This document shows, in pieces, positions 1-14,483 of a stretch of DNA of 24,224 nt. Made by a program: the position numbers and the translations under genes. Each line of letters opens with the position of its first letter. The first letter of the stretch is position 1. The stretch is taken from positions 1 to 24,224 of the IMG/VR virus record IMGVR_UViG_2548876940_000013; one strand, 5' to 3'. Under the pieces are notes generated by a model. It saw nothing but the letters and a program-made list of their open reading frames with translations, was not told the origin of the DNA and did no database searches. The DNA comes from a virus (lineage: Duplodnaviria; Heunggongvirae; Uroviricota; Caudoviricetes).

Positions 1-44
1 CAGCCATATGCGGCACTCCTGGTTAAATTTCATTTTTCGCGGGT

Positions 45-106
45 ATAAAAAAACGATGGGGCGGGCAGTCCGGAAGACGTCAGGTCACAGGGATTTGACC
101 CGCCCC
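45..106 (-). terminator. Candidate rho-independent terminator downstream of the HNH gene (could instead be part of a cos/packaging region)
   Basis: Inverted repeat ggggcggg (58-65) / cccgcccc (99-106), followed on the - strand by a T7 run (plus-strand A-run 45-53). The 33-nt loop is long for a simple terminator. Confidence 0.3.
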
Positions 107-132
107 TCCCCTCTGGCAATGGGAACTGGTTC

Positions 133-483
133 TTACTTCAGCCGTTCACGGGCCGTCTTCGCCTTATGACACGGCCAGCACAGACTCTGCAGGTTACTGT
201 CGGCATCGGTGCCGCCATGCGCTTTGGGAATGATGTGGTCAACGGTTTTCGCCTCACCCACCACACCAGCATGCAGACATAATTGACATAAACCTTTGTC
301 ACGCTTCAGCACACGCGCGCGGATAACATCCCACTTCGAACCATAACCGCGCTGATGACGAGATTGCCCCGGCTTGTATTGTTTCCAGCCTTCGTTTTTG
401 TGGCTTTCGCAGTAGCCTGACGGGTCTGTAGTGGTATTACGGCAGCCGCGAACGCGGCAGGATTTTGGGGTTCGTAGGGGCAT
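133..483 (-). CDS. Phage HNH homing-type endonuclease
   Basis: Cys-rich N-terminus (CRVRGC...C) and HNH core DHIIPKAHGGTDADSNLQSLCWPCH. The ORF track start at 546 is GTG; the internal ATG at 483 has the SD aagagga 8 nt upstream, so 483 is preferred. Packaging-proximal position is typical. Confidence 0.85.
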   Translation of the reverse strand: MPLRTPKSCRVRGCRNTTTDPSGYCESHKNEGWKQYKPGQSRHQRGYGSKWDVIRARVLKRDKGLCQLCLHAGVVGEAKTVDHIIPKAHGGTDADSNLQSLCWPCHKAKTARERLK

Positions 484-633
484 TGCATAATCCTCTTGGA
501 TGGTTCGCGTACGATACGTGGCACCCTTCTCAGAATCGAATCGCACTCCATTCCGGTTTTGCCATAAACGATCTTTTATGCTTCGCTGGATGTAGTTGAT
601 AGTTGTTGAAACTCAATGAACAGGAGTTCACAA

Positions 634-969
634 ATGAATAGTTATGAATGGGAATGGCTTTTGAACAAAGATGACACCCTATACTTTTTCCCCGTAGGCC
701 ATTCTGTAGAAGGTAATTACAAAATTCACTTTGAGTTGAGCGGTAGTTGTAACCTTAGAGTCTCAGATGCTGAATTGCATGGTAAACCTGTACTGCTGTT
801 CGAATACTTCGATGAAGATGATGACCGCCCTGCAATAATCGAAATATTAGAAACAACCACTACAACTGTGGAGGCGATGATCGCACATCTGAATAGTATC
901 GATAGTATTTACCATGAACCGATTTACAAAGCTGTTTACGAGTGGGCTGTAAAGTTTTTCTATCGATGA
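634..969 (+). CDS. Hypothetical protein (moron, unknown function)
   Basis: ORF on the strand opposite to the flanking late genes. The ATG at 634 is preceded by caggag (621-626); the track start at 616 lacks an SD. AT-rich and acidic (FEYFDEDDDRP). No recognisable motif. Confidence 0.5.
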   Translation: MNSYEWEWLLNKDDTLYFFPVGHSVEGNYKIHFELSGSCNLRVSDAELHGKPVLLFEYFDEDDDRPAIIEILETTTTTVEAMIAHLNSIDSIYHEPIYKAVYEWAVKFFYR

Positions 970-1012
970 TACTTCGTTATCTTTCTGGCATTCACAATAC
1001 CTTTACATATTA

Positions 1013-1639
1013 ATGACATGCCAGCACAATACTGTCACTTACAACCGTTCGGATTACCTAGAGAAAAGTATGATTCAGGATTTACTGATCGAAGCAATTA
1101 GTCACGATAGGATGCATAAAAAGTTAAATGAACTGAATGGCTACTTCTACAATCGCAAACATGAAACACAAATACGTGATGAGTTAGTTGTTATACTCAA
1201 TCAAATCAGCACACTAACTGCTTTAAGTGAGCATCCAAAACTCGGTATCGGCGCTGTTGACATATCACTTTATAACCAGTCGATATTAACGTCTGAACAT
1301 AATGGCAATGTTGCAACCATCGAGATAAAACACCATTACCCAAAGGATTTACTTTATCGGCAAGTTCAAGAAGACATCATTTCCGATATTTCAAGAGTAA
1401 TAGTTTCACCAACTACACACTTTATCCATATAATCCAGCAAAGAACCAAGATTAAAACTCCTTCTTTTGGTCAAGTGAAATTCCTTGAACGTGATGCAAG
1501 TGATATCAGCACTTATGTGCAATGTCTTGAGGAGCTAAGTTCATTTCCCAGTAATTTTCATAAAAAAAGTGTATGTATTGAGGTACTTGGTGAAATTATG
1601 TCGACATATACCTTTAACGTATATTCATTTGACAACTGA
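1013..1639 (+). CDS. Hypothetical protein (moron, unknown function)
   Basis: 208-aa ORF, same strand as and 44 nt downstream of the 634-969 ORF; AT-rich. Start uncertain (alternative ATG at 1070). No recognisable motif. Confidence 0.5.
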   Translation: MTCQHNTVTYNRSDYLEKSMIQDLLIEAISHDRMHKKLNELNGYFYNRKHETQIRDELVVILNQISTLTALSEHPKLGIGAVDISLYNQSILTSEHNGNVATIEIKHHYPKDLLYRQVQEDIISDISRVIVSPTTHFIHIIQQRTKIKTPSFGQVKFLERDASDISTYVQCLEELSSFPSNFHKKSVCIEVLGEIMSTYTFNVYSFDN

Positions 1640-1660
1640 TTAATTTGACAATTTTATTGC

Positions 1661-1918
1661 TTAATGGTTAGTTCTCTCTGCATCTATTTTACGAATATCA
1701 GCTTTATCCCGATTGCAGTTAGCCAGCGCAGACAACAGACTCACATTCAGCTCCAGACTGGCACCATACGTCAGCGGATTAGGTATAAACGGTACAGGAG
1801 TATCAGAAGTCAGGCTGGGTGGCAGTGGTGCCACCGGAACGCTCACGTAAACTGTCCGCGTACTTCCGCAACCGGTCAGCAGCGGCAGCAGGCACAGCAC
1901 GTGAAGCACAATCATCAT
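1661..1918 (-). CDS. Rz1: o-spanin (Rz1-like outer-membrane lipoprotein)
   Basis: Alternative frame overlapping the 3-prime end of Rz. Signal peptide with lipobox MMIVLHVLCLLPLLTGC, then a proline-rich segment PVAPLPPSLTSDTPVPFIPNP. Start at the MM pair (1913-1918) is inferred. Extends past the Rz stop (overlapped rather than fully embedded). Confidence 0.6.
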   Translation of the reverse strand: MMIVLHVLCLLPLLTGCGSTRTVYVSVPVAPLPPSLTSDTPVPFIPNPLTYGASLELNVSLLSALANCNRDKADIRKIDAERTNH

Positions 1919-2195
1919 CCGCAACAGCCATTTTGATATCTTCCTGGGTTCTCTGTGACTCCAGTGCGATCTGCTGTTTTGCATGCTGGTTAGCCTCCAG
2001 TACTGTATTGACGATTTGCAGTGATTGCAGGACGTTATTGGTAATGGCAGTTGCCGATTTGGCATTTTGTACAGCCTCATCAGCACGTTTCTTTTCGTGC
2101 TGATATTTGCTGTAGTAGTGATTCGCTGACCAGATGAAAGAGCCAATAACAGTAAAGAAGAAAGCAGAGATAGTCAGCTTATAACTCAACTTCAT
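1803..2195 (-). CDS. Rz: i-spanin (Rz-like)
   Basis: N-terminal TM helix (LTISAFFFTVIGSFIW) then a coiled-coil-like charged region. Sits directly downstream of the endolysin; its ATG at 2193-2195 overlaps the end of R. Confidence 0.7.
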   Translation of the reverse strand: MKLSYKLTISAFFFTVIGSFIWSANHYYSKYQHEKKRADEAVQNAKSATAITNNVLQSLQIVNTVLEANQHAKQQIALESQRTQEDIKMAVADDDCASRAVPAAAADRLRKYADSLRERSGGTTATQPDF

Positions 2196-2655
2196 TTACC
2201 ACCCCACCAGCCTCTTTAAATCGGGCAATCAGGTCACCGATTTTATGTTCATACTGACCGTAACCTGCACCGGGTAATGAAGCCCATATATTGCTGCAAC
2301 GGTCGATTGCCTGACGAATATCGCCGCTATCAATCATAGGTAAAGCGCCACGCTCTTTAATCTGCTGCAATGCCACTGCGTCCTGGCTTTTGGGGGAGAA
2401 GTCTTTCAAACCAAGCTGTTTACGGTAAGCATCCCACCAACGGGAAAGAAGCTGGTAACGTCCGGCGGCTGTTGATTTGAGTTTGGAGTTTAGCTTGACA
2501 AGTTTGCGAGGGTGATCGGAGTAATCAGTGAAGAGTTCTCCACCGACAATAACGTCATAACCGTGGTTACGTGTCGGTTGTCGCCCGTTATCCGTTCCCT
2601 CTGACCATGCCACCATATCCAGGAAAGCTTTACGCTGGGAATTTAGTACCTGCAT
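2179..2655 (-). CDS. R: Endolysin, lambda R-type lytic transglycosylase
   Basis: Translation closely matches lambda R as recalled (QRKAFLDM-AWSEGTDNGRQ-TRNHGYDVIVGGELFTDYSDHPRKLV...AGRYQLLSRWWDAYRKQLGLKDFSPKSQDAVALQQIKERGALPMID). Strong SD aaggag upstream of the ATG. Confidence 0.9.
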   Translation of the reverse strand: MQVLNSQRKAFLDMVAWSEGTDNGRQPTRNHGYDVIVGGELFTDYSDHPRKLVKLNSKLKSTAAGRYQLLSRWWDAYRKQLGLKDFSPKSQDAVALQQIKERGALPMIDSGDIRQAIDRCSNIWASLPGAGYGQYEHKIGDLIARFKEAGGVVNEVEL

Positions 2656-2658
2656 AAA

Positions 2659-2985
2659 TTACTCCTTAGAGCCACCAAACTTATTACCGATTACTCTCAT
2701 TGCAGCCCCACGAATAGCATCGACCCCGATCAGCCCAACGCCGCCACCAATGGCAACAGAAAGAGATTTAGGCCATCCGACATACTCAAGAGCGGATGCA
2801 AAAGTCAGCGTCAGAGCACCACAGAGCAAAATCTCGAGCGTTTTTCGTTTCCAGCCACCACCACCGCCAAAATAGGCAATGCGCAAGCCAGCCATAACGA
2901 TCGACATAATCACTGCGCCCAGCGGTGTGTCTCCACGCCACCAGCTCTGGAACAACTCCAGCCAGGTATTTGGGTTATGAGGCAT
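2659..2985 (-). CDS. Holin (three-TM type)
   Basis: 108 aa with three hydrophobic helices and a charged C-terminus; immediately upstream of R with its stop 1 nt before the R start. Confidence 0.75.
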   Translation of the reverse strand: MPHNPNTWLELFQSWWRGDTPLGAVIMSIVMAGLRIAYFGGGGGWKRKTLEILLCGALTLTFASALEYVGWPKSLSVAIGGGVGLIGVDAIRGAAMRVIGNKFGGSKE

Positions 2986-3124
2986 TTGTAGTTATCTCTC
3001 ACCTCGCTGATACAGCAGGTGCAAATTGAGGGAACATCATGTACAGCAAATTAGAAGCGGAAACGTCAAAGAAGCCGAACCAATGGATAACTGCGAAATA
3101 GACCAGGACCAACGAATCCCCAGC

Positions 3125-3160
3125 CCCAGAAACGACAAAACCCGCTCGACGGCGGGTTTA
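3125..3160 (-). terminator. tR-prime-like terminator of the short late leader transcript
   Basis: 8-bp GC stem aaacccgc / gcgggttt (3138-3145 / 3152-3159) with a 6-nt loop, followed on the - strand by the T-rich tgtcgtttctgg. Lies between the Q-proximal cargo and the holin, as in lambda pR-prime/tR-prime. Confidence 0.4.
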
Positions 3161-3169
3161 AGCTGTGTG

Positions 3170-3270
3170 GCGAAGTAACCACTCTTAACACGATACAATA
3201 ATTTTTGCGTACGCGTTAGCGTTTTTGTAAGATTAACAAATAAATCGAAAAATCATAATCGGATGATTTC
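3170..3270. promoter_or_regulatory. AT-rich divergent control region: candidate late promoter/Q-utilisation site (- strand) and promoter of the cargo cassette (+ strand)
   Basis: Roughly 100 bp AT-rich, non-coding on both strands, located between the tR-prime-like hairpin and the start of the 3271 gene. No confident -35/-10 assignment. Confidence 0.3.
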
Positions 3271-4293
3271 ATGGCAAAATTAAATGCTAGCGAAAGACTC
3301 GTTACTCATCATAGTCTGACCATTGACACAAAGTTTAGAACCAAGGCAACACAAGAGGTAAAAGCCCAGTGTATATGTCCTGTTCCGGAAATGTACATGC
3401 TTGCCCCATTGATTGTTAAACAAAAGGGACTCGTTCATTCATATGATTCTGGGAATATTGTAGTTACTCTCCAAGATGTACAACTTTATCCTTTACTTCC
3501 AGATAACTCACCCACGCATATTGTCCTTCTTATTAATAGTGTTGATAAAAATGGAAGTACTACCGTTGTAAAAAATATAAATACTAATGAACGCGTTGAA
3601 ATCCAACCAAAATATGAACAAGGTGAAGGCTATGAAGTTTCTACCTATGTTGTCATATCATTAAATGGAAATAAAAGAACCTATGATATGATTTGTACAT
3701 CTACCCCAGGTGTATCTACGGCCCGGTTAAATAGTTTTTTAGACAAAATTCTCTTTGAAGTGGCGAAAGACAATGAAGACTTATTTACCGCAAAACATCC
3801 AACTAACGTTATTTCTGCAACATCAAAAAAAGAAGTAAAAATACGATACAAACCAATATTTGAATTTACAGGAATGTTAGACAAGGAGCTTTTTAATAAA
3901 ATAAGCCAAAAAGGATTATCAGATGTCATATTAGTCAAGGATCAATTCGGAACAATTAATGCTCCTGATGTTAATTCACCTTACATTCCGACTGAAAGTA
4001 CATTAAAATTACTTCCAAATCATGGTGACAATGTTATTGGATGGATTAAAAATGTAGCATCTCATTTCAATAAAAAAATGAATGGTGGTTATGATAAATT
4101 AAAGGTTAAATTCCAAGATCCTGAAACAAATAAACCAAGGCAGGTTGATTTCAAAACCTCAAACATCAATCTTAATAATTTAGAAAAAACATTTATTAAG
4201 AAAAGCATTATCGATAACTTTAATTCGCGCCTGAAGGATTCATATGTTAAAATTGAACTAGAGTTTGTTGTGAAAATGATAGATTTGATGTGA
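3271..4293 (+). CDS. Hypothetical 340-aa soluble protein, first gene of the Q-lysis cargo cassette (candidate defence/abortive-infection component)
   Basis: Clean 340-aa ORF with ATG start, visibly AT-rich, antisense to the late operon. Lys/Asn-rich; no motif I recognise. Confidence 0.6.
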   Translation: MAKLNASERLVTHHSLTIDTKFRTKATQEVKAQCICPVPEMYMLAPLIVKQKGLVHSYDSGNIVVTLQDVQLYPLLPDNSPTHIVLLINSVDKNGSTTVVKNINTNERVEIQPKYEQGEGYEVSTYVVISLNGNKRTYDMICTSTPGVSTARLNSFLDKILFEVAKDNEDLFTAKHPTNVISATSKKEVKIRYKPIFEFTGMLDKELFNKISQKGLSDVILVKDQFGTINAPDVNSPYIPTESTLKLLPNHGDNVIGWIKNVASHFNKKMNGGYDKLKVKFQDPETNKPRQVDFKTSNINLNNLEKTFIKKSIIDNFNSRLKDSYVKIELEFVVKMIDLM

Positions 4294-4300
4294 GGTTATT

Positions 4301-4885
4301 ATGCCAATACTTTCAGTTTTCTCTCATCTAGGCAAGCCGTTTGGATATCTTTTTATTAAAGGTATTAGCGGCAAAGCTGCATATGATTGGGTAGCACCAA
4401 TTCTACTTACTTCTATCACAGCAGTACTTTTCATTCTATTAAAAATCCCTGTCAAAGATTTATTTGATGACAATGGTTTCATTAAATCAATCGTTTCATT
4501 TATCTCTAACCTACCAGGGTTTTATATTGCCGCTCTGGCCGCCATAGCAACTTTCAATAGAGCTGAGATTGATTTACCATTGATTAGCAATGAAAGAAAT
4601 GCCTCTATTGAAATAAAAGTAACAAAAGAAAATGGAAAAGTAGTAAATTCAGAGGAGGTTCTGACCAGACGATTATTTCTTTGCATGCTATTCTCTTTTT
4701 TAACAGCATTAAGCATTGTTATAATAATACTTAATGCTATATTTTCACCATTAATCAATGTCTATCAAAACAGTATTGTTTTAATGGTTTATACTGTTGT
4801 ATTTACTTTCCTAGTTTGGCAACTCTTAGTATCAACTTTCTTTGGATTATATTATCTCGGAAACAGAATTCATATGAATTATTAA
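4301..4885 (+). CDS. Hypothetical 194-aa integral membrane protein (about four TM helices), second gene of the cargo cassette
   Basis: ATG 7 nt after the stop of the upstream gene, with the SD gagg overlapping that stop (operon). Four hydrophobic segments, roughly aa 30-50, 60-85, 125-148 and 159-186. Confidence 0.6.
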   Translation: MPILSVFSHLGKPFGYLFIKGISGKAAYDWVAPILLTSITAVLFILLKIPVKDLFDDNGFIKSIVSFISNLPGFYIAALAAIATFNRAEIDLPLISNERNASIEIKVTKENGKVVNSEEVLTRRLFLCMLFSFLTALSIVIIILNAIFSPLINVYQNSIVLMVYTVVFTFLVWQLLVSTFFGLYYLGNRIHMNY

Positions 4886-4906
4886 GCCCTACAGGGGCTT
4901 AATAAT
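4879..4906. other. Perfect 11-bp stem hairpin spanning the convergent stop codons of the cargo cassette and Q
   Basis: ttattaagccc-taca-gggcttaataa. The stops of the 4301-4885 gene (+) and of Q (-) lie 3 nt apart inside this structure. No U-tract on either side. Confidence 0.4.
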
Positions 4907-5239
4907 CAACAAAATACCTTCAATCACTCCTATTGCTGCTTGAAGTTGTTTTCTGATTGACCCGTCAGAGCATTTCCGTTTCTTTGCTATTGAACGGAGT
5001 GAAATACCGATAACAAAGTGAGCAATGATCAGTTCATATTCTTCTGGCTTATATTTCCGCAATCGCGCAACACAGCTGTCAATCATGATTCCTTCATCAT
5101 CATCGCATTGTTGGCGTATTTTCTTTCCATGAGGTAGTAAACCTTTAAACCCTGCAGCAACAGGCTGCCAGTCCACACCACTGTTATCTGCTGCAGCCCA
5201 TGCTCCCCAGCGGTCCAATACTTCATACATATCACGCAT
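4889..5239 (-). CDS. Late-gene antitermination protein Q (QuuD-like)
   Basis: Motifs VLDRWGAWAA, GFKGL and a Cys/His-rich centre, as recalled for DLP12-type Q. Track start is TTG at 5254; the ATG at 5239 has the SD ggagaagg. Located directly upstream of the lysis cassette. Confidence 0.7.
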   Translation of the reverse strand: MRDMYEVLDRWGAWAAADNSGVDWQPVAAGFKGLLPHGKKIRQQCDDDEGIMIDSCVARLRKYKPEEYELIIAHFVIGISLRSIAKKRKCSDGSIRKQLQAAIGVIEGILLIIKPL

Positions 5240-5256
5240 CAACCTTCTCCACAAAA

Positions 5257-6252
5257 TCAGGCCAGCACGCCAATTGTCAGCGCACGATCGATAAAACGAA
5301 ATATCAGCTCCAGCTGGGAGCCATACTTCTCTTCAAATGCCACGGTATCCGCATGCAGCTCGTCGTGATGCTTTCTGCACAAAGGCAACACAAAGAGATC
5401 ATGCGCTTTTGTACCCATTCCACCCTGACCGTGGCCTATCAGGTGGTGGGGATCATCAGCGGGCTTTCCACAACATGCACACGGCTGTGTCTTAACCCAG
5501 CGCGTGTACTTTTCATTAACCCAGCGGCGACGTTTTGGGCGTAACATAAAAGACTCCGGCGACTCCGGATCCACTTTCAGCGCCAGCACCTTTTTCGCCT
5601 TATCCTGGATGATGCTGGTGGCAGGAACCGAAGGCACAAGGTCACTTTCCCGGGAGACAGACGGCACAACAGGCTTCGGTAATCTCAGTGCCTTACGGGC
5701 TGCACTTTCCGGTAAGGCATCCGCCAGGTCATTACGAATCAGCCACCAGCACAGTTCCGGCATTGTCACAACGTGACTATCATCAAAACCGAGATCCCGA
5801 CGCACAACAGACAACACCCAGCGGGCACAGTTATCCGTTGCCATTGATTCCAGCCGTTCCGTGAACTGATCGCGCAGCTGGTTATCGCAGTGCCAGCACA
5901 GACGGATTGCGCCCGGAGCGTGTCGCATTGTGGTCATGTTCTCGCTGTGCCAGTCGGAATGAGGCCACTGACAGCCTTTTTCACGAAGTAACCAGCTTTC
6001 AAGACATTCCACGCCACCAGCACGACGGATCACTGCCTCATTGCGGAACACGGCCCGAACGGCAGGATCATCCGCCAGCGGTTGTGATGCCGCCGGAACG
6101 GCACCGCTGGCGAAAGATGAATAACGTTCCGGCTCAGGCTCCAGCAGGACACGCCCCTGCATAAACAAGGGCATCAGCTCTGAACCTGGCCTGAACAATA
6201 CGATCCCCATACGCGGGGCAATTTCAGGGGTCAGTAGTGCTCTCACGGTCAC
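5257..6252 (-). CDS. DUF968/YdfU-like phage protein
   Basis: 331-aa ORF with a C-terminal Cys/His-rich HNH-like motif CACCGKPADDPHHLIGHGQGGMGTKAHDLFVLPLCRKHHDELH. nin-region position. Start ambiguous (GTG 6252 or ATG 6210). Confidence 0.55.
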   Translation of the reverse strand: MTVRALLTPEIAPRMGIVLFRPGSELMPLFMQGRVLLEPEPERYSSFASGAVPAASQPLADDPAVRAVFRNEAVIRRAGGVECLESWLLREKGCQWPHSDWHSENMTTMRHAPGAIRLCWHCDNQLRDQFTERLESMATDNCARWVLSVVRRDLGFDDSHVVTMPELCWWLIRNDLADALPESAARKALRLPKPVVPSVSRESDLVPSVPATSIIQDKAKKVLALKVDPESPESFMLRPKRRRWVNEKYTRWVKTQPCACCGKPADDPHHLIGHGQGGMGTKAHDLFVLPLCRKHHDELHADTVAFEEKYGSQLELIFRFIDRALTIGVLA

Positions 6253-6253
6253 C

Positions 6254-7063
6254 TCAATGAACGGTATCGAGCAGCTTTAACAGCTCTGGGAATCGGGATT
6301 CGAAGAAATGCGGCTGCGTCTCGCGCGGATTTGCGGGACTGGTGATGTTCTTGCCGAACATGCAGCCTTTCGCTGTCAGCGACCAGAATTTTTTGATGTT
6401 GTTAATCGCGGTACGGCTGTATCGTTCGCGCTGCTCGACGATCCCCAGTTTCACCATCTGGTGATATGCCTGATTAGCTGTCAGGCGGATACCATACTGC
6501 TTCAGCAGTGCACTCAGTGACAGCGTGGGGCGGCTTGAGCCATCAGGCGCGTCAGCAGGAGCATCAATGGCATAGCGCGGTGCCAGATTCGGTAAGCCAA
6601 CAGCCTCCTGGAGTTTCTGACAGGCACCAAGCACTGAAGAGTTAGACAGGTTTAACTCCCGGCGCATAAAGTCCAGCAGGATCACGCCAGCCTGCATCTT
6701 GTCAGCAGCCTGTCCGGATAATTTTTCCGGTGCGCTGGTTACCATATCGAAAGTACGGATCACCTTCAGATGGAATGACGGGCTGATCCACATTGCATAG
6801 GCATACACCAGTTCCTTGCAGACATACGTTCCCCGTTCATTTCCCCCATGAATCACACTCACCGGGTCAACACCCAAATTCTGGGTGTTGGTCAATTCAT
6901 GAACAAGCTCAACAGTTTGTTGGCTGGAAAGAAACTTTCCCGGCTCCTTGGTTCTGGCATTTGCACCAGATGCTACTGCTGCGCGATGCAGATCGTTCAG
7001 GCTGTAACGCCCATAAGCATCACGACGAACTTCAATACCATCAATGACCATCAGATTATTCAT
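6254..7063 (-). CDS. KilA-N domain-like protein (antirepressor-like)
   Basis: N-terminal MVIDGIEVRRDAYGRYSLNDLHRAA resembles KilA-N as recalled. Strong SD aagaggag. Family call is tentative. Confidence 0.45.
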   Translation of the reverse strand: MNNLMVIDGIEVRRDAYGRYSLNDLHRAAVASGANARTKEPGKFLSSQQTVELVHELTNTQNLGVDPVSVIHGGNERGTYVCKELVYAYAMWISPSFHLKVIRTFDMVTSAPEKLSGQAADKMQAGVILLDFMRRELNLSNSSVLGACQKLQEAVGLPNLAPRYAIDAPADAPDGSSRPTLSLSALLKQYGIRLTANQAYHQMVKLGIVEQRERYSRTAINNIKKFWSLTAKGCMFGKNITSPANPRETQPHFFESRFPELLKLLDTVH

Positions 7064-7082
7064 ACTTCGTTTCTCCTCTTAA

Positions 7083-7472
7083 TCAGGCGGCTGCACCCGC
7101 CGTTTTCTCGTACTTACTGATAGTGATTTCGACCTTCCCTTCCGGGATAACCGGTCCCCACTCCACTAGCATTCTTTTCACCTGACTGTCGTCTTCCCAC
7201 ACACCCGCGTGGGTCATGGCGTCAAACAGCGCCTTGTTATAGTTGTCCAGATCGCGGATCCGGTTATCCGGAGGAAACAACACGATCTCCACTGAAGCAG
7301 GTGCCGACGTTGGTTTCGGCAGACGACGTAACTGCTCAACTATTGCTGCGCACGCCGCGCTCTGGAATTTTCGCCCCGCCTCGCTTATCAGGCTCTTACC
7401 TGCAAACGCCCCTTTGTTGGGGTGTCGCCAGTACGTGTTCACGCTGGGCGGAAAAGGCAGAATCAGCTTCAT
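7083..7472 (-). CDS. rusA: Holliday-junction resolvase RusA
   Basis: 129 aa with LPFPPSVNTYWRH and the acidic catalytic region RDLDNYNKALFDAMTHAGVWEDD, as in RusA. Typical nin-region position. Confidence 0.85.
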   Translation of the reverse strand: MKLILPFPPSVNTYWRHPNKGAFAGKSLISEAGRKFQSAACAAIVEQLRRLPKPTSAPASVEIVLFPPDNRIRDLDNYNKALFDAMTHAGVWEDDSQVKRMLVEWGPVIPEGKVEITISKYEKTAGAAA

Positions 7473-7795
7473 ACTTTCATGCCCCTCTTATGTAACCAGT
7501 GGGTTGCACGCAGCCTGGCGTTTTCCTCACCGGCAAGCAGTGCGCGGATAATCCCGACCGCCTCGCTGTCGTCGTCCTTGACCGCGGTATGAAGCGTTAT
7601 CCCCCGGGCCACACCACGCTTTATCGTGATGACGCCTTTTTTCTCCAGTGCGCGAAGATGCTCCACCGCTGCATTCACCGAACGGTATCCCAGCATGGTT
7701 GCCACCTCCTGATTGGTTGGCGGGAAGCCACGTTCTTTCTGATAAGAAATCAGCATATCCAGCACCTGCTGCTGGCATTGAGTTAACGTCGTCAT
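7469..7795 (-). CDS. LexA-like DNA-binding protein (N-terminal winged-helix domain only, no S24 peptidase domain)
   Basis: QQQVLDMLISYQKERGFPPTNQEVATMLGYRSVNAAVEHLRALEKKGVI parallels the LexA N-terminal domain, including the recognition-helix SxNAAxEHL pattern; the protein ends about 40 aa later. ATG at 7795 overlaps the upstream stop (TAATG). Confidence 0.7.
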   Translation of the reverse strand: MTTLTQCQQQVLDMLISYQKERGFPPTNQEVATMLGYRSVNAAVEHLRALEKKGVITIKRGVARGITLHTAVKDDDSEAVGIIRALLAGEENARLRATHWLHKRGMKV

Positions 7796-8283
7796 TACGC
7801 CCCCACGTAATTCCCTGACAGATACCACTCATCACTCGATACAGCGCGCTTGCTGCTTTTCCGTAAACACTGCTCACGACGCGCCAGAAAATTGTTTCGT
7901 TCTGGCTGGGAGTGGCTTTCACGGAATGCCGCCATCCACACCGTTGCAGCACGACGGTATAAGCCCCTTGACTCCAGTTCTTCAGCCTGGCGGGTCAGGC
8001 ACAAAATCACCCGGGGATCGTTAGTGCCGACATAGAAATTGCGCACAGGTCTGGTTTCACGAACTGGTTGTGGTTCCGGCTCCTGCGCTCTCTCAGTCAG
8101 GCGCGGGAAATGTCTGCGTGTATCTCCTTCACAACGGTGAGCCACACGCCCACTCTGACGTAACTTGCTTGCTGACTGCAGAACGCGCTGCCGTGAGTAA
8201 CCTGCAAAAGCATCCGCAATGTCTCCGGAAGTACACCCCGGATGGGCTTCAATGAATTTCTGAACTTCATTCAAAAGACTCAT
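7795..8283 (-). CDS. Hypothetical regulatory protein with a PerC-like C-terminal motif
   Basis: C-terminal GLYRRAATVWMAAF resembles the PerC-family signature as recalled. ATG at 8283 with SD aggggg. Confidence 0.4.
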   Translation of the reverse strand: MSLLNEVQKFIEAHPGCTSGDIADAFAGYSRQRVLQSASKLRQSGRVAHRCEGDTRRHFPRLTERAQEPEPQPVRETRPVRNFYVGTNDPRVILCLTRQAEELESRGLYRRAATVWMAAFRESHSQPERNNFLARREQCLRKSSKRAVSSDEWYLSGNYVGA

Positions 8284-8285
8284 AA

Positions 8286-9227
8286 TCACCCCCTGAATCC
8301 TGCCGGGATCTGGCTGTAGTCCACGTTGTCGTAACTGGCTTTGAAGTACGGGTCTTCACGTTTTTCTGTGTGCGTGCTGACGGACGGCGATAAGCGCAGG
8401 GAAAGCTCATCCCATTTTTCCCGCAACTTCGACGGGCTGAGCACGTTACGGCACCAGAACGGATCGCGGCTGACGCGGCTGTACATCTCGCAGATTTGTT
8501 TGTGAGTACGACCATCCTGCACACACATCAGGCGAATTTCGTTTGCCCAGGCTGTCCAGTTAGGTTCTTTGGGACGAACCACCTCGCCGTCACATTCGGC
8601 GGCCTGCTCGTACAGGGCGATGATTTTTTTCCAGAGCCACTGTGCGCAGGTCAAATCATCCTGCGTTCCCCACTGGCGCTTTTTAGGGCTGAATACAACC
8701 GCATCAGGATGGCGAGTTAAAAAATCCTGTTCATCCATCTGCGTGTCCGGTTGCGAAGCGTCCGGACGAGAAGGTTTTTTATCTGATGGATCATGTTTTG
8801 ATTTTACTGACGGATCCCCGCCAGATTCTGACGGGTGAAAACCCGCTTTTTTGCCAGATTTCGACGCATCAAATTTTGACGGGTCAGATTTTGATGCGTC
8901 AGATTTTGACGGGTCAGAATCTGACAGTTGAGAAAATGCCGCTGCCTGAAGCTTCGCAACGTTAAGCTGATAAACATTCGACGCATTGCGGTTACCCTGG
9001 CGACGCGCCTTACGCGTTAACCAGCCTTCTGCTTCCAGCCGTGCGATAGCCGTTCTGACGGTACTCATCCCCGCGCCAATCTGACGGGCAATGGTTTCAA
9101 TTGATGGCCAGCACACACCTTCGTCATTACTGAAATCAGCCAGGCGGGCCATAATTGCCACGCTGGATAACTTCATGCCTGATGCAGCGCAACCATCCCA
9201 TACATAGCCGGTTAATTTAGTGCTCAT
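8286..9227 (-). CDS. Phage replication initiation protein (winged-helix N-terminus, iteron-encoded linker, DnaT-like C-terminus)
   Basis: N-terminal HTH (WPSIETIARQIGAGMSTVRTAIARLEAEGWL). Central low-complexity repeat SDPSKSDASKSDPSKFDASK encoded by the iterons. C-terminal end SQIPAGFRG resembles the E. coli DnaT C-terminus as recalled. Confidence 0.7.
   Translation of the reverse strand: MSTKLTGYVWDGCAASGMKLSSVAIMARLADFSNDEGVCWPSIETIARQIGAGMSTVRTAIARLEAEGWLTRKARRQGNRNASNVYQLNVAKLQAAAFSQLSDSDPSKSDASKSDPSKFDASKSGKKAGFHPSESGGDPSVKSKHDPSDKKPSRPDASQPDTQMDEQDFLTRHPDAVVFSPKKRQWGTQDDLTCAQWLWKKIIALYEQAAECDGEVVRPKEPNWTAWANEIRLMCVQDGRTHKQICEMYSRVSRDPFWCRNVLSPSKLREKWDELSLRLSPSVSTHTEKREDPYFKASYDNVDYSQIPAGFRG
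8800..8927. repeat. Origin-of-replication iteron array inside the replication gene
   Basis: Seven copies of a roughly 15-bp unit (consensus agattttgacgggtc), four contiguous at 8871-8927 and three more at 8800-8870, with an adjacent AT-rich tract at 8771-8800. Confidence 0.7.
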
Positions 9228-9396
9228 GACCGACCTCTATTTCCCTGAATTTACGACGAAACTGTTCGAGCGGACTGAAGCATTCATGCTCATAACCTTC
9301 GCGGAGGTAGATAACCCGTTGTGTTTCCGGCTCCCAACGAATGACTCTGACGAGCACTCCGTAGTGATCTTTGAACCAGCGGTTAACTTGTCGCAA
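9217..9396 (-). CDS. Small hypothetical protein (59 aa, TTG start), alternative frame to the 9237-9575 ORF
   Basis: TTG at 9396 preceded by a strong SD aaggag with 8-nt spacing. Product ([40 protein letters not shown]...) looks protein-like. The stop overlaps the replication gene start. Confidence 0.3.
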
Positions 9397-9575
9397 AGGA
9401 CTGTCTCCTTCTGCCGGTTGAAATCACCCACAGCCCACTCTGCAAAGCTGTGGGTTACAATTTCCCTGTCACCTGGTACATTCACTGCATAGCAATATTC
9501 CACCTTCGCTTTTCCACCCGGTACAGGAAGCGCAATCAGTTGCGAGCGACGGTAGTGTGTTGTTAAACTGTTCAT
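9237..9575 (-). CDS. Hypothetical protein (112-aa ORF; the C-terminal half looks low-complexity and may be the wrong frame)
   Basis: ATG at 9575 with SD ggagaaa, overlapping the upstream stop (ATGA). The N-terminal 55 aa look plausible; the Ser-rich remainder overlaps the better-looking 9217-9396 frame. Confidence 0.35.
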
Positions 9576-10162
9576 GCGTTAGTTTCTCCACAACCAGAAG
9601 CAATCGACGCCACGACGCCCGGAGCTGCACACTCGCGGGCGTCATTACTTTCTGAAATGCAAAAAATTTTGTAGACAAGTGCTGCATGCTCCTGCAGCTT
9701 CGAAATTGAGAGATACAGCTCGTCGTTAATTGCTGTCTTCTCATGCGGTTCCACTACGCCGTCTTCGATTGCTGAACGAATCTGTTTTGAATAACTGCCG
9801 ATCTGTTCAATGACTTCCAGCAGACGCTGGTTAATATCGGCGTTGTCCACATCCTCGACGTCAGGAAGAGACACAAAGACGCCATTTGCAGACTGCGCCA
9901 CAGCATCAGCAATGAAGTGAGTGCCACCAGCACGCTGTAAAACCATTGCCCATCCCAGCGGGAAAATCTGATCGCCATCTGCACGAAGGCGGTTGAATAA
10001 AGCGTTCTCTGTTACATCCAGCCAGTCAGCGGCTTCAGCGTAACCCCCCGGCAACGCCGCGATAGTTTTTCTGACAGCTTTCACGTACCACTCAGGCTGT
10101 TTTTCTATTTTCCAGTGATGCTTACCCACGGCTATCTCCTTAAAACTGTGGTTACTTTTCAT
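9572..10162 (-). CDS. Hypothetical early regulatory protein (CII/YdaT-position)
   Basis: Occupies the slot after the cro-like gene. The track start (TTG 10234) overlaps the cro-like gene, so the ATG at 10162 is preferred. No motif recognised. Confidence 0.4.
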
Positions 10163-10400
10163 CTGATGAATCTTTAATCTTTTGAAAAATATCTGGACGT
10201 AATTTTTCTTTTGATATGCCAGTGGTCTTTTCAATGAATATCGAGAGCTTTGCAGGGGGACGCTTTTCTCTGTTCAACCAGTTCCAGACATGTTGTTGCT
10301 TTACTAAATGACCGCTGCTGGCTGTGAGCTTCCGAGCCAATTCTGATTGACCACCAGCCAGAGCGATTGCCTCCGATAAGGCTAATTGCTCAGGTGTCAT
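10152..10400 (-). CDS. Cro/YdaS-like HTH regulator
   Basis: 82 aa with the HTH ALAGGQSELARKLTASSGHLVKQQHVWNW. Strong SD aaggagaaa. Divergent from the CI-like repressor across an operator-containing spacer. Confidence 0.7.
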   Translation of the reverse strand: MTPEQLALSEAIALAGGQSELARKLTASSGHLVKQQHVWNWLNREKRPPAKLSIFIEKTTGISKEKLRPDIFQKIKDSSDEK

Positions 10401-10535
10401 AGCTTTCTCCTTTTTTGGTAGTTAAGTTGTTACGAGCTGCAAGAATACAACATTAACAACTTTTACCACAACTTTTAGGTGTTGGAAAGCTAAAACATAA
10501 AGTTGTAACCTCATCAAAAAAGAGAGGGATATGTT
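10401..10535. promoter_or_regulatory. OR-like divergent promoter/operator region between the cro-like and CI-like genes
   Basis: 135-bp spacer with repeated acaactttt units and the inverted copy aaagttgt (caacttttaccacaacttttaggtgttgg ... cataaagttgtaacc). Confidence 0.5.
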
Positions 10536-11222
10536 GTGAAAACACTGGCAGAACGATTAAAGATAGGTAGAGAGAAAGCTGGCATGAGCCAAGCTCAACT
10601 AGCTGAAAAAATTGGACTTTCACAACAATCTGTAGCCAAAATAGAGAATGGCGAAACTCTACAACCGCGCAAAATTAAAGAAATTGCAAAAGTTTTAGGT
10701 GTATCACAAAAGTGGTTACAACTTGGTATTGAAGACAACGCATCCATACCTGATCTTGTTGTAAAAGAAGCAGAAAGCACCGCATTAGACCCCGATATTT
10801 TCGTAAACATTCCTGTTTTAGATGTCGAGTTATCGGCAGGTAACGGATGTCTGGCTGAAATAGTTGAATCAGCTATTGACTGGTTTCCGTTAAGAAGAGC
10901 AGATTTGAGAAAATCTGGCGTATGTGCATCTAATGCCAAGATCGTACAAATATGGGGGAACAGTTTATTACCGGTTCTCAATAATGGAGATCTTGTTGCC
11001 GTTGATATTTCTCAAACCGTTCCTATTCGTGATGGCGATCTTTATGCCGTACGAGATGGTGTATTGCTAAGGGTTAAAATACTTATCAACTTACCTGACG
11101 GTGGCTTGATTCTTAGAAGCTTCAACAAAGATGAGTACCCAGATGAAATACTCACCTTTGAAGATAGACGAGCCAGAATTCATGTTATAGGTAGGGTATT
11201 CTGGTCATCGCGAACTTGGTAA
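10536..11222 (+). CDS. CI-like prophage repressor (XRE-type HTH plus S24 LexA-like peptidase domain)
   Basis: N-terminal HTH (MSQAQLAEKIGLSQQSVAKIENGE) and C-terminal S24 fold with Ser (GNSLLPV) and Lys (LRVKIL) in the expected places. GTG start with SD agagaggg. Confidence 0.85.
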   Translation: MKTLAERLKIGREKAGMSQAQLAEKIGLSQQSVAKIENGETLQPRKIKEIAKVLGVSQKWLQLGIEDNASIPDLVVKEAESTALDPDIFVNIPVLDVELSAGNGCLAEIVESAIDWFPLRRADLRKSGVCASNAKIVQIWGNSLLPVLNNGDLVAVDISQTVPIRDGDLYAVRDGVLLRVKILINLPDGGLILRSFNKDEYPDEILTFEDRRARIHVIGRVFWSSRTW

Positions 11223-12095
11223 TGCATCGAAAAGCATTTCTTCAGAAATAATTTTAAGTTTTGCACCATTATCATCCCTATAAGATATAGCCTTTTCGAT
11301 CTTCCTTCCGTGACTAGAGAATTTCCAATCACGGGAGGAAAGCGTCCCAATTACTAAAAAATCCAACTTTTGAGTAATTCCACTACTGATGTTCCCACCA
11401 GCATTTTTAATCAAATTTTCAACTACGGCTCTCTTTCCTGCAACAAAAGTGCCTGTAAGACAATAGGTTTTACCCTCTAACTCTATCGAAGCCCCTACAT
11501 CAATAGGCAGCCTGGTCGCCAAACCATCCACCACCCCACTTTCCAAGTCACATCCTGTGAAGTCTACTAATGCCTTATGTAGAGTTAAACTCTCATCTTC
11601 AGTAATAACACCATCTTTAAGAATTTCCTTTACAAGTGCATAAAGTTTTTTTCCTGGGTAGTTGTTCTTCAAAGCTCCATTTTGCTCAAGCCACCAATTA
11701 AGATATCTTATTTCTTCTTGAGTTAAGTTCCGATCAGCAATTAATCCTTTACATAGTCCATTAAGTAAATGGACATCTACATCCTTGGAGTAAAAATCAA
11801 TTTCAGGGATATCAAGAATTTCCCTCTGTATTTGGAGAAGACTATTTTTAAGGTCATCACGTTCTTCTGATGTGATTATTCCATCCACAAGAATATCCGA
11901 CACCCGTGCAGATAGACTTTTTATAACTCCATTATTGATAATCTGCTTTGCTTCAAGTAACCATGTATCTAAGTAAAGAACCTCCTCTTCACGGACAACT
12001 CCATCTGCAATGATTCCATCAATGATGCTAATCAAGTTAGCAAATAACTTGTCCCGGTTCTGTGTGTAATTAAAAGCGTAAAGCGCGTCTTCCAT
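11205..12095 (-). CDS. TerB-like-repeat / BRCT-domain protein in the immunity region (candidate exclusion/defence factor)
   Basis: C-terminal BRCT signature GKTYCLTGTFVAGKRAVVENLIKNAGGNISSGITQKLDFLVIGT...KLKIISEEMLFDAL, as in the LigA BRCT. N-terminus has four repeats of about 38 aa with the motif [IL]xDG[IV][IV]TxEE. ATG at 12095 with SD aaggagg; track start is GTG 12125. Confidence 0.7.
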   Translation of the reverse strand: MEDALYAFNYTQNRDKLFANLISIIDGIIADGVVREEEVLYLDTWLLEAKQIINNGVIKSLSARVSDILVDGIITSEERDDLKNSLLQIQREILDIPEIDFYSKDVDVHLLNGLCKGLIADRNLTQEEIRYLNWWLEQNGALKNNYPGKKLYALVKEILKDGVITEDESLTLHKALVDFTGCDLESGVVDGLATRLPIDVGASIELEGKTYCLTGTFVAGKRAVVENLIKNAGGNISSGITQKLDFLVIGTLSSRDWKFSSHGRKIEKAISYRDDNGAKLKIISEEMLFDALPSSR

Positions 12096-12300
12096 ACAAC
12101 CTCCTTTTTTTGATAATCCTTGCACTCCTTGGCTACTCGTTCAAACCACATAAAGTTGTTGACAACATTCAAAACCACAACTAAATTACAACTTAAAGGT
12201 GTTAAGACAACGAACAGGCAGGACGCCCACGAAGTAGCCGCTTGGGGCATATGAAGTCCAGGATGATTCGTTGAGTCATGTTGTGCCACTAGGCACTCAT
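12096..12300. promoter_or_regulatory. OL-like operator/promoter region (candidate pL driving + strand early-left genes, with a divergent promoter for the BRCT gene)
   Basis: Contains the near-palindrome aaagttgttgacaac and the motif acaacttaaaggtgtt, which match the units in the cro/cI spacer. Confidence 0.4.
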
Positions 12301-12319
12301 GTTAAAGCAGGTGTATGAA

Positions 12320-12595
12320 ATGAAAGTCCAGATTTTAAACAATAACTGTGAAGTCGTTTGGTCATACGACATAGCCGCCCCTGTAGATCAGAGCGGCGAT
12401 AGCTGGACCAATGGGAAACATCAGATTATGGCTGGAGTTGTGTTCTCTTTACGCCGTGCTTTGGAACAGGCTGAAGTATTTCCATCAGACCCTGAATGGA
12501 AATGGCCTTTTTCTATTTGTCCAAATTCGGAGAGCACATTTCAGAAAATTGGTCAGAAAGTCGCACTCGAAGAGCATCAGCCAACTGTTTCCTGA
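12320..12595 (+). CDS. Hypothetical early-left protein
   Basis: ATG at 12320 with SD aggtg; the track start at 12299 has no SD. The 3-prime end overlaps a - strand ORF, so one of the two may be spurious. Confidence 0.4.
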   Translation: MKVQILNNNCEVVWSYDIAAPVDQSGDSWTNGKHQIMAGVVFSLRRALEQAEVFPSDPEWKWPFSICPNSESTFQKIGQKVALEEHQPTVS

Positions 12596-12758
12596 TTTTT
12601 TCAGGTAACTCGTCGGCATCGCAGAAACAACAACGCTCGATCATGTTGAAAGCCGATTCGTAGAACTGTTTCTGCTGAGTGTCGCTGAGACAGGAAAAGA
12701 GCGACGTTACGATGATTTTATTAATTGCATTATCAAATTCTTTTTCATCAAAAGTCAT
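12513..12758 (-). CDS. Hypothetical small protein
   Basis: 81-aa ORF with SD aaggaaa before the ATG. Product looks protein-like (acidic, Cys motif CCFCDADE). Confidence 0.35.
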   Translation of the reverse strand: MTFDEKEFDNAINKIIVTSLFSCLSDTQQKQFYESAFNMIERCCFCDADELPEKIRKQLADALRVRLSDQFSEMCSPNLDK

Positions 12759-13011
12759 TTGATTTTCCTTTTATGTATACGGGCTTAAAAGGATACCACC
12801 GAGCCTGAAGTGGTGAAAAGACAGGCACATAACAGCTAAGTATTTTCAACCAAAGAGAATCCTTAGCGTTGTGGTGAATGCGGCTCAGCGCACGCGGGTT
12901 AAGGTTGAGGCTGACAGTCGACCTTCTGTGGATACCCACCCGCCTGGTGTGCAACCTTCGCCAGGCACCGGGAGGCACCCGGCACCACAACTTTATGCTG
13001 TGTGTAGTCTT

Positions 13012-13068
13012 GGCGGTACCAGCTTGTACCCTTGCTTCCGGCTGGTACCGTCCTTTTTACAAAACAGA
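13012..13068 (+). terminator. Strong hairpin with a downstream T-run (candidate early-left terminator/attenuator)
   Basis: 10-bp stem cggtaccagc / gctggtaccg around a 17-nt loop, followed by tcc-ttttt. Lies in a GC-rich stretch with no convincing ORF. Confidence 0.4.
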
Positions 13069-13195
13069 GAAGAGCATCACCGGACGACGGGCTCATAACC
13101 CAATCCATCCGGGCGGCGGCCACCACAAGTGTTCTTCTCTGTTTTGTGGAGAAACTAATAGGCCTTGCAGGGTCGATATGATGAGGAGCAGCAAA

Positions 13196-13558
13196 ATGGC
13201 TAGCGAACGCAGTACTGATGTACAGGCATTTATCGGGGAGCTGGACGGCGGCGTATTTGAAACCAAAATCGGCGCAGTTCTCAGTGAAGTCGCTTCCGGT
13301 GTGATGAACACGAAAACCAAAGGTAAGGTCTCGCTCAACCTGGAAATTGAACCATTTGATGAGAACCGTGTGAAAATCAAACACAAACTCTCATATGTTC
13401 GCCCGACTAACCGCGGGAAAATTTCCGAAGAAGACACTACCGAAACGCCGATGTATGTCAATCGCGGTGGTCGCCTGACTATTCTGCAGGAAGACCAGGG
13501 ACAATTACTGACTCTTGCCGGTGAACCTGACGGAAAACTCCGCGCAGCAGGTCGTTAA
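13196..13558 (+). CDS. YfdP-like phage protein (120 aa)
   Basis: ATG at 13196 with SD gaggag. The longer track ORF from 12878 runs through the structured leader and is not credible. Size and position upstream of YfdQ/YfdR-like genes match the CPS-53 arrangement as recalled. Confidence 0.55.
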   Translation: MASERSTDVQAFIGELDGGVFETKIGAVLSEVASGVMNTKTKGKVSLNLEIEPFDENRVKIKHKLSYVRPTNRGKISEEDTTETPMYVNRGGRLTILQEDQGQLLTLAGEPDGKLRAAGR

Positions 13559-13623
13559 TATCGTTCTTAATAAACTGATTATTTATCTCATCACTGAATA
13601 TCTTTGTATAGTGAGGACTTATT

Positions 13624-14448
13624 ATGTCTCAGAACTTAGACGCAACCGCAATTAATCAAATCCATGCCCTTATTTCTGCTCAGGGTGTTAATGAAATTAT
13701 CAGTAAGATTGGTGCCGACGCAGTGGCGTTACCTGAAAATTTCCGCATTCATGATCTGGAAAAATTTAATTTAAATCGCTTCCGTTTCCGTGGCGCGCTT
13801 TCCACTGCCAGCATCGATGACTTTACCCGTTATTCTAAAGATCTTGCAGATGAGGGCACCCGCTGCTTTATCGATGCTGATAATATGCGTGCCGTCAGTG
13901 TGCTTAACCTGGGTACTATTGATGAACCAGGTCACGCAGATAACACCGCCACTCTCAAACTGAAAAAGACAGCACCGTTCTCTGCTCTGTTGTCTGTTAA
14001 TGGCGAGCGTAACCCCCAGAAATCACTGGCAGAATGGATTGAAGACTGGGCCGACTACCTTGTGGGCTTTGATGTTAATGGTGACATCATTCAGGCAACA
14101 AAAGCGGCTGCGGCGGTCCGTAAAATCACGATTGAAGCAAACCAGACCGCTGATTTTGAAGATAATGACTTCAGCGGAAAACGCTCCCTGATGGAGTCTG
14201 TCGAAGCGAAGACCAAAGACATTATGCCAGTGGCATTTGAATTTAAATGCGTTCCGTTTGAAGGCCTGAAAGAACGTCCGTTTAAATTACGCCTCAGCAT
14301 TATCACTGGCGATCGTCCTGTACTGGTACTACGCATTATTCAGTTGGAAGCAGTGCAGGAGGAAATGGCTAACGAATTTCGTGATCTGCTTGTTGAGAAA
14401 TTCAAAGACAGCAAAGTAGAAACCTTTATTGGTACTTTCACCGCCTGA
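13624..14448 (+). CDS. YfdQ-like (DUF2303) phage protein
   Basis: 274-aa ORF with SD gagg. Length and neighbours match CPS-53 yfdQ as recalled. Confidence 0.6.
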
Positions 14449-14460
14449 TTTCATTACTGC

Positions 14461-14483
14461 AAATGCCCCTGCGGGGGCATTTG
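14461..14483 (+). other. Hairpin downstream of the YfdQ-like gene
   Basis: aaatgcccc-tgc-gggggcattt, a 9-bp stem with no clear U-tract. Confidence 0.3.

Follow-up and report, generated by a model that had tools for sequence, protein, structure and literature searches.

What is the function of two small, AT-rich genes that separate the lysis genes of a prophage from its packaging end and are read against its late operon? We addressed this question in a 24,224-nucleotide (nt) stretch of DNA from a member of the Caudoviricetes (IMG/VR record IMGVR_UViG_2548876940_000013, positions 1 to 24,224), hereafter the window; all coordinates are positions in this window and the plus strand is the strand shown. 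A first-pass annotation made from the sequence had noticed the two genes and suggested a toxin/antitoxin-like pair or another accessory module, located where lambdoid phages often carry bor-type morons. The analysis presented here points to two independent pieces of prophage cargo, the second of which, gene 2, is a good and testable candidate for a single-gene defence system.

Two antisense genes fill an optional slot at the lysis/packaging junction

The open reading frame (ORF) listing places two plus-strand ORFs, 616/634-969 (gene 1) and 1013/1070-1639 (gene 2), between an HNH endonuclease gene and Rz1. Their GC contents of 0.39 and 0.35, respectively, compared with approximately 0.50-0.55 in the flanks, together with the identity of the flanking genes, confirm that this is an AT-rich gene pair on the strand opposite to the late operon. 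Using BLAST of the window, we found that homology to related Escherichia coli prophages stops exactly at 483/484, the start codon of the HNH gene, and resumes at approximately 1684-1701, within the 3' end of Rz1. Strain FDAARGOS_1373 carries an empty allele, in which just 26 base pairs (bp) separate HNH from Rz1, and in other E. coli the slot is occupied by a gene for a 169- or 145-amino acid (aa) hypothetical protein, a GrlR-like gene, or a plus-strand gene for a trypsin-like peptidase. Comparison of the interval among related prophages thus reveals an insertion polymorphism with empty and alternative alleles, and it bears out the earlier idea of accessory moron cargo in a bor-like slot. On this sequence evidence, the segment from 484 to approximately 1690 is an optional cargo insertion in a hotspot. 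A match to the PADLOC candidate system PDC-S45 (7.4e-21), and weaker matches to the RT-Protease and LmuA models, were obtained for the trypsin-like peptidase that occupies the slot in E. coli A21 (locus L034, 767-1624, plus strand).

The two-gene cassette is found in approximately 80 of 5,426 complete E. coli genomes at 95-100% identity, while neither the cassette nor either gene alone had a match among 50,697 sequenced phage records by megablast and tblastn. One carrier, E. coli UPEC_U013, has identical DNA within a prophage that encodes a P27-family TerS, an HK97-type head and a sheathed tail. The gene 2 family is found at the lysis/packaging junction in three prophage backgrounds, whose packaging modules are of the Terminase_2, lambda GpA and P27/HNH types. 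Judging from the alleles compared, the HNH/terS-Rz1 junction is a cargo hotspot with empty, single and stacked alleles, and both genes are ordinary in kind, being prophage morons at a known type of hotspot.

As both proteins match PHROG profiles (gene 1, phrog_14397, 1.3e-77; gene 2, phrog_12494, 1.1e-126), have homologues in several Enterobacterales genera, and show nonsynonymous divergence (dN) far below synonymous divergence (dS), we consider both genes to be real. Where dS is unsaturated, dN/dS is approximately 0.15, indicative of purifying selection on both; in most comparisons dS is saturated and dN ranges from 0.13 to 0.53. The PHROG profiles start at the same residues as genes initiated at 634 and 1070, and PGAP annotates the corresponding hypothetical proteins in UPEC_U013 as WP_001089763.1 (111 aa, equivalent to 634-969) and WP_000613842.1 (189 aa, equivalent to 1070-1639). 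The limits originally given for gene 1 therefore stand, with an AGGAG motif 7 nt upstream, whereas those given for gene 2, a start at 1013 and a length of 208 aa, do not. Because gene 2 homologues in other genera all begin with MIQ, which corresponds to M20 of the long ORF, as do the PHROG profile and the PGAP protein, the true start is to be placed at 1070, giving a predicted protein of 189 aa; the 57 nt that precede it align to non-coding DNA in relatives.

No RNA family was identified in the window using Rfam. An imperfect 16-nt inverted repeat (625-640 / 1622-1637, 88% complementary) brackets the ATG of gene 1 and the stop codon of gene 2, and a 13-nt direct repeat (1623-1635 / 1639-1651, ATTCATTTGACAA / ATTAATTTGACAA) spans the same stop codon. 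By rough estimate, both repeats are probably chance matches in AT-rich DNA.

Gene 2 has the predicted fold and active site of a PD-(D/E)xK nuclease

An AlphaFold model of the gene 2 protein, generated with 21 homologues (pLDDT 85.6, pTM 0.86), has a core of alpha-beta-beta-beta-alpha-beta topology that comprises a helix at residues 29-46, strands at 50-53, 65-68 and 80-89, further helices, and a strand at 117-127. This is the core fold of the PD-(D/E)xK superfamily. The sole invariant columns among 38 family members, down to approximately 20% identity, are K30, E32, D64, E85 and K87, which position a glutamate in the first helix, an aspartate at the opening of strand beta2, and the ExK motif in strand beta3. 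Since these invariant residues form a canonical active site within a confident fold, we assign gene 2 to the PD-(D/E)xK superfamily with high confidence; it is most probably a Mg2+-dependent DNA endonuclease. The protein had initially been described as having no recognisable motif, a description that this signature refutes. Single distant members of the family weakly match HSDR_N, PDDEXK_4, SduA and REase_II.

The best structural matches of the model are the type IIP enzymes SwaI, BglI, EcoRV and HincII. These are sequence-specific restriction endonucleases and not resolvases, which bears on whether gene 2 could instead serve the lytic cycle, for example by resolving junctions, taking part in recombination or degrading host DNA, without acting in the lysogen. 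Such a role is highly improbable given that the gene is optional, with an empty allele in close relatives, that it runs antisense to the late operon and shares the AT-richness of horizontally acquired cargo, and that the prophage already encodes RusA.

The family is small. Among 5.8 billion proteins it forms 31 clusters, a profile search of 1.84 billion recovered 48 representatives, and homologues are present in 4 of 185,579 species-representative genomes. The named clusters are all from Enterobacterales, as are the named homologues at 50% identity or above throughout. Scans of Pfam and NCBIfam returned nothing significant for either protein of the cassette. Gene 2 belongs to a rare and undescribed PD-(D/E)xK family that is absent from the publications and defence catalogues searched.

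Gene 2 lacks a linked methyltransferase

A restriction enzyme of the type II class would be expected to reside beside its cognate methyltransferase if it formed part of a restriction-modification system. No DNA methyltransferase adjoins gene 2 in the E. coli, Enterobacter, Providencia, Proteus or Yersinia contexts examined, none adjoins the four distant homologues examined, and Pfam scans of the larger ORFs in the prophage arm of the window (1-16522) revealed no methyltransferase domain. In the contexts examined, the linked methyltransferase of a type II system is thus missing, and gene 2 is, as far as these neighbourhoods indicate, an orphan without a dedicated methyltransferase. The four distant homologues occupy varied locations, some of them in non-phage chromosomal contexts. 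One, P0054 (approximately 29% identity), lies 18 nt downstream of a gene for a DUF2779 protein on metagenome contig SRR19019158_309455 (L020, 1-5555); the other three are beside copC/copD, beside a ParE-like gene, and on a short contig with unannotated neighbours. The surroundings of P0054 also encode a 695-aa AAA ATPase and a WYL/WCX regulator, and look like a defence island.

We considered whether gene 2 might nonetheless be half of a split restriction-modification system, a conventional type II enzyme against which the chromosome is protected by host Dam or Dcm methylation or by a phage methyltransferase encoded elsewhere. Its fold most closely resembles that of orthodox type IIP enzymes, and its size would suit a homodimeric restriction endonuclease; some carrier prophages (L001 and L017) do have DNA methyltransferase genes, located in the Q-holin slot and in the early region; and the restriction of named homologues at 50% identity or above to Enterobacterales would be in keeping with host methylation, as Enterobacterales are generally Dam-positive. 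However, the absence of a methyltransferase domain from the larger ORFs of this prophage arm and from the neighbourhood of gene 2 in the contexts examined argues against this arrangement, and the link to Dam or Dcm is pure conjecture. We regard a split system as unlikely.

The two genes are not an obligate pair

Gene 1 encodes a small acidic protein, as first described. Its family is characterized by a conserved acidic run, EYxDEDDDxPA, that contains a DEDDD patch, and by a conserved C-terminal helical region, MIxHLNxxDSxYHxPIYxxxYEWA. The AlphaFold model is poor (pLDDT 62) and gave no informative fold, and searches of Pfam, PADLOC, PHROG and NCBIfam identified no recognisable domain and no antitoxin-type DNA-binding domain. 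Homologues form 37 clusters, the named ones all from Enterobacterales. Neither gene 1 nor gene 2 encodes a signal peptide, lipobox or transmembrane segment, and the maximum 19-residue Kyte-Doolittle score is below 1.0 for both; the two proteins are therefore considered cytoplasmic and, as the first-pass annotation had stated, neither is Bor-like. Gene 1 is best described as a small acidic cytoplasmic protein.

Within 5-6 kb on either side, the two families do not co-occur outside the E. coli cassette, whose copies are at least 95% identical, and tblastn of both proteins over 25 loci likewise found them together only in that cassette. An Enterobacter homologue of gene 2 (67% identity) occupies the lysis-terS slot behind an unrelated 75-aa ORF, a Proteus homologue lies between HNH and Rz behind a gene for a 103-aa protein with a hydrophobic, signal-peptide-like N-terminus, and the Providencia, Yersinia and Citrobacter homologues have yet other, unrelated neighbours. 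Conversely, gene 2 is missing beside the gene 1 homologues (47-70% identity) of Escherichia sp., Serratia, Pantoea and metagenomic prophages. Those in Escherichia sp., Serratia and the metagenomic prophages are divergent from the first packaging gene at a distance of 68-69 bp, and the Pantoea homologue is at the edge of a decayed prophage. In E. coli J31 (L040, CP053787), gene 1 is thrown out of frame after codon 26 by a single inserted nucleotide, at the equivalent of window position 711, while gene 2 is intact and annotated, although this is a single assembly in which a sequencing error is possible.

These distributions are the main evidence on whether the cassette is a toxin/antitoxin or nuclease/immunity pair, in which a toxic gene 2 product would be restrained by gene 1 and would act in abortive infection or addiction. 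Within E. coli the two genes are always together (79-80 genomes, at least 95% identity); gene 1 is small and acidic, as are many nuclease inhibitors and DNA mimics; and the unrelated 75-aa ORF that precedes the Enterobacter gene 2 also looks acidic from a residue count by eye. In addition, IS3-family elements interrupt gene 2 in three genomes, whereas gene 1 is uninterrupted in 79 of 79 matches, though frameshifted in J31; this bias, at least three disrupted copies of gene 2 against none of gene 1, involves counts too small to carry weight once gene length is allowed for. A type II toxin-antitoxin system is, however, conserved as a unit across lineages, and here the families part outside the E. 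coli cassette: the neighbours of gene 2 vary, gene 1 stands alone beside terS, and the distant homologues of gene 2 are solitary. Nor do the genes form a tight, overlapping operon, as they are separated by 100 nt that contain a promoter-like site and a separate remnant of terS described below. The lack of an antitoxin-type DNA-binding domain, or any domain, in gene 1 and, more suggestively than decisively given the single assembly, the J31 frameshift with an intact gene 2 also speak against a restrained toxin. We conclude from these comparisons that gene 1 and gene 2 are not an obligate pair, and consider the toxin/antitoxin interpretation put forward by the first-pass annotation very unlikely.

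Remnants of terS starts mark the boundaries of cargo units

If the two genes are independent, they would have been brought together by stacking, and the non-coding DNA around them retains what appear to be traces of this process. The packaging-proximal edge of the gene 1 unit, 68 nt ahead of the gene 1 start, is marked by a fossil that corresponds to the 5' end of a Terminase_2-type terS gene. Its motif, CCAnTCnGGnTTnnnCAT, matches the genuine terS start (MAKPDWG.LQ) located 68 nt from gene 1 homologues in L008-L016; that is, where gene 1 homologues stand alone, the sequence equivalent to the fossil is a real terS start. Fossils that match the same motif precede gene 2 homologues in L002-L007, L021 and L023. 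Such fossils lie 40-90 nt upstream of the homologues in Enterobacter, Citrobacter and Providencia, the last having two copies, and differ by a few bases from genuine terS starts. Alignment with the regions upstream of gene 2 homologues revealed a decayed copy in the 970-1069 spacer as well. Fossils are present even where the packaging operon begins with HNH and a P27-type TerS.

The recurrence of these fossils suggests that a cargo unit consists of a terS-start fossil, a short leader and a gene. We propose that units joined the stack through recombination in the initial ~30 nt of a Terminase_2-type terS, and that the whole stack may later have moved into an HNH/P27-terS backbone. In this way, the fossils show how cargo units are exchanged at the junction.

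A fossil of the packaging gene directly upstream of a nuclease gene is also what might be left by a selfish, free-standing homing endonuclease that cuts the terS start or the lysis-packaging junction of competitors and is copied in by repair. Gene 2 has a predicted nuclease fold, it is present or absent at a fixed site with clean empty and filled alleles, it is found at the same junction in prophages with three packaging modules, and the fossils upstream of its homologues are only a few bases from genuine terS starts. Yet gene 1 homologues, which have no nuclease features, carry the same fossil, so that the fossil belongs to the slot rather than to gene 2. Furthermore, gene 2 was not found in the 50,697 sequenced phage genomes, its orientation antisense to the late operon is unfavourable for expression in a co-infection, and some distant homologues are in non-phage chromosomal contexts. 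In view of these observations, we consider homing very unlikely.

A proposed role for the stacked genes in the lysogen

Late transcription from Q and the lysis genes must cross positions 1660-484 to reach HNH and the terminase genes, and is antisense to both cargo genes. A scan of 400-1900 found no terminator-like site on either strand, so late transcription should run through. A comparable arrangement has been described for taiEcA (orf63) of phage phi80, which lies "upstream of the packaging module" and is divergent within the Q operon (He et al. 2024, PMC11364771). That gene is expressed in the lysogen, is reduced by Q, and gains transposon insertions when it is costly (PMC11364771). As the architecture at the present locus is the same, we infer expression in the lysogen with antisense damping during lytic growth.

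The 484 to ~1690 segment is best read as a two-unit stack of independent morons, placed where the lysis and packaging genes of a lambdoid E. coli prophage meet; by the phi80 analogy, both would have their own promoters, be switched on in the lysogen and be damped by late read-through in the lytic cycle. The gene 2 enzyme would cut incoming foreign DNA, such as that of a phage, and so protect the lysogen and its prophage. Self-DNA might be spared if the enzyme requires a feature of foreign DNA, either a modification or the lack of host Dam/Dcm-type methylation, or if it is held at low activity; a further conjecture is that it is specific for replicating phage DNA. The conjectured dependence on Dam or Dcm stems from the restriction of close homologues to Enterobacterales. 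Gene 1 would be a separate accessory factor, expressed in the lysogen and with its own distribution, and not an obligate partner of gene 2. Taken as a whole, the chain from lysogen-expressed stacked morons to a gene 2 endonuclease directed at incoming DNA is one that we consider plausible while placing it slightly on the doubtful side of even. More tentatively, gene 2 may represent a new family of single-gene, methyltransferase-less superinfection-defence nucleases in lambdoid prophages of Enterobacterales, which would recognise some property of foreign DNA, possibly a replication intermediate, with gene 1 as a second lysogen-expressed anti-phage or anti-defence factor.

Several observations weigh against this interpretation. 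The claims concerning expression rest on analogy because the promoter and terminator scans were weak: the promoter-like site upstream of gene 2 (1002-1030, TTTACA-17-CACAAT) is a weak one that matches the consensus at 9/12 positions, and a consensus promoter scan found none upstream of gene 1. Neither protein matches any family in PADLOC-DB 2.0 at E<=1, sequence searches of the PDB with profiles A1, A2 and A3 returned nothing, including for gene 2, and the Foldseek comparison that the first-pass annotation had proposed yielded no match for the gene 2 model in BFVD at E<=0.001. Literature searches by protein accession and PHROG identifier found no paper on either protein. IS3-family elements interrupt gene 2 in 3 of the approximately 80 genomes (L017, CP180607; L018, CP195362; L019, CP182220), at approximately nt 112-115 of the gene in two and nt 320 in the third, with gene 1 intact in all three; in strain CD45, the prophage with the IS3-interrupted gene 2 is also truncated beside icd. 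These interruptions could mean that gene 2 is costly or dispensable. Finally, we infer nuclease activity, substrate and lysogenic expression alike, and a solitary enzyme resembling a restriction endonuclease would need some means of sparing the host chromosome.

If gene 2 does encode an active orphan nuclease that protects lysogens, it would enlarge the E. coli pan-immune system by a compact defence consisting of one 570-bp gene, would raise the question of how a solitary enzyme with a restriction endonuclease fold avoids cutting its host, and might provide a new DNA-cutting specificity. Were it inactive or purely selfish, the cassette would be ordinary prophage accessory DNA.

Organization of the window and neighbouring genes

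The features of the locus, together with the terS-start fossils at other loci, are collected in the table.

Table. Features of the cargo slot and its surroundings, with positions in the window unless another locus is named.
Feature	Position	Strand	Description
HNH endonuclease gene	133..483	-	Pfam HNH 6.5e-15; PGAP: 117-aa HNH endonuclease at the identical locus; first gene of the packaging end and left conserved flank of the cargo slot; P27-family TerS next, beyond the window
terS-start fossil	548..565	-	Non-coding; ATG GCA AAA CCG GAA TGG = MAKPEW; 5' end of a Terminase_2-type terS
Shine-Dalgarno AGGAG	622..626	+	7 nt 5' of the gene 1 ATG; read from the sequence
Gene 1	634..969	+	111 aa, pI 4.56; independent cargo gene
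Spacer between gene 1 and gene 2	970..1069	+	100 nt; decayed terS-start fossil at ~1018-1040; promoter-like site at 1002-1030
Gene 2	1070..1639	+	189 aa; predicted stand-alone PD-(D/E)xK nuclease, type II restriction-endonuclease fold
K30-H31-E32 codons	1157..1165	+	Helix 29-46; E32 is the predicted helix-borne acidic active-site residue
D64 codon	1259..1261	+	Start of strand beta2; predicted D of PD-(D/E)xK
E85-I86-K87 codons	1322..1330	+	Strand beta3; predicted ExK of PD-(D/E)xK
Rz1	1661-1918	-	Nested in and overlapping Rz; convergent with gene 2; right flank of the cargo slot
Rz	1803-2195	-	Lysis gene
Lysozyme	2179-2655	-	Lysis gene
Holin	2659-2985	-	Lysis gene
Q antiterminator	4889-5254	-	Phage_antitermQ 2.4e-44
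Integrase	15395-16522		Prophage border side
terS-start fossils at other loci	L002-L007 5943-5960; L023 4125-4142; L021 4407-4424 and 4892-4909		Upstream of gene 2 homologues

Another pair of antisense genes, likewise AT-rich (GC 0.32), occupies the slot between Q and the holin gene (3271-4293 and 4301-4885, plus strand). Its products match the PADLOC candidate defence system PDC-M53 (M53A, 2.1e-32; M53B, 1.8e-54), and the UPEC_U013 prophage, which is otherwise related, has a DNA methyltransferase gene and other genes in this slot. With the HNH-Rz1 cassette and the Q-holin pair, the prophage therefore has at least two cargo hotspots that carry antisense genes. The equivalent of the Q-holin slot in the Proteus sp. 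FME41 prophage, which also carries a gene 2 homologue, contains a further antisense ORF of 207 aa upstream of the holin gene (L024, 8388-9011, plus strand), whose product bears a by-eye likeness to phi80 TaiEcA (FAHKL vs LAHNP).

Towards the far end of the window, just past the prophage integrase gene, a minus-strand gene at 16745-19213 encodes 822 aa with a TIR_2 domain at the N-terminus (3.9e-14) and may be a defence gene at the border of prophage and chromosome. In the immunity region, a gene for a 306-aa protein with a C-terminal BRCT domain (11205-12125, minus strand, 1.3e-06) abuts the CI-like repressor gene (10536-11222; HTH_3 and Peptidase_S24), for which it is an unusual neighbour.

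Comparison with known systems

The architecture of the locus resembles that of phi80 taiEcA, in that both involve a gene of approximately 200 aa between the lysis genes and the packaging module, in the opposite orientation within a Q-controlled late operon. The resemblance does not extend to the proteins: Tai acts by blocking tail assembly, whereas a nuclease active site is predicted for gene 2, and no co-oriented anti-immunity gene was identified at this locus. Homology to Tai was evaluated with hhalign against phi80 orf63 and rejected (probability 0.5% for the gene 2 profile and 0.2% for the gene 1 profile). In lambda, bor is located downstream of Rz/Rz1, and the cassette shares with it the character of optional cargo just downstream of these genes, opposite to late transcription; neither protein of the window is similar to Bor in sequence, and both lack its lipobox.

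Among defence systems, Shedu (SduA, DUF4263) is likewise a stand-alone PD-(D/E)xK nuclease carried on mobile elements, and one distant member of the gene 2 family matches SduA (1e-5), although gene 2 itself matches neither SduA nor any other PADLOC model. Shedu proteins typically have N-terminal sensor domains, which the gene 2 protein lacks. Gene 2 differs from the type II restriction endonucleases of the EcoRV/SwaI/BglI/HincII group in having no detectable sequence similarity to solved restriction endonucleases or to Pfam families, and no cognate methyltransferase adjoins it in the contexts examined. What it shares with this group is the predicted core, with the aspartate of beta2, the ExK of beta3 and a glutamate in the helix, and its 189 aa fall within the size range of small type II restriction endonucleases.

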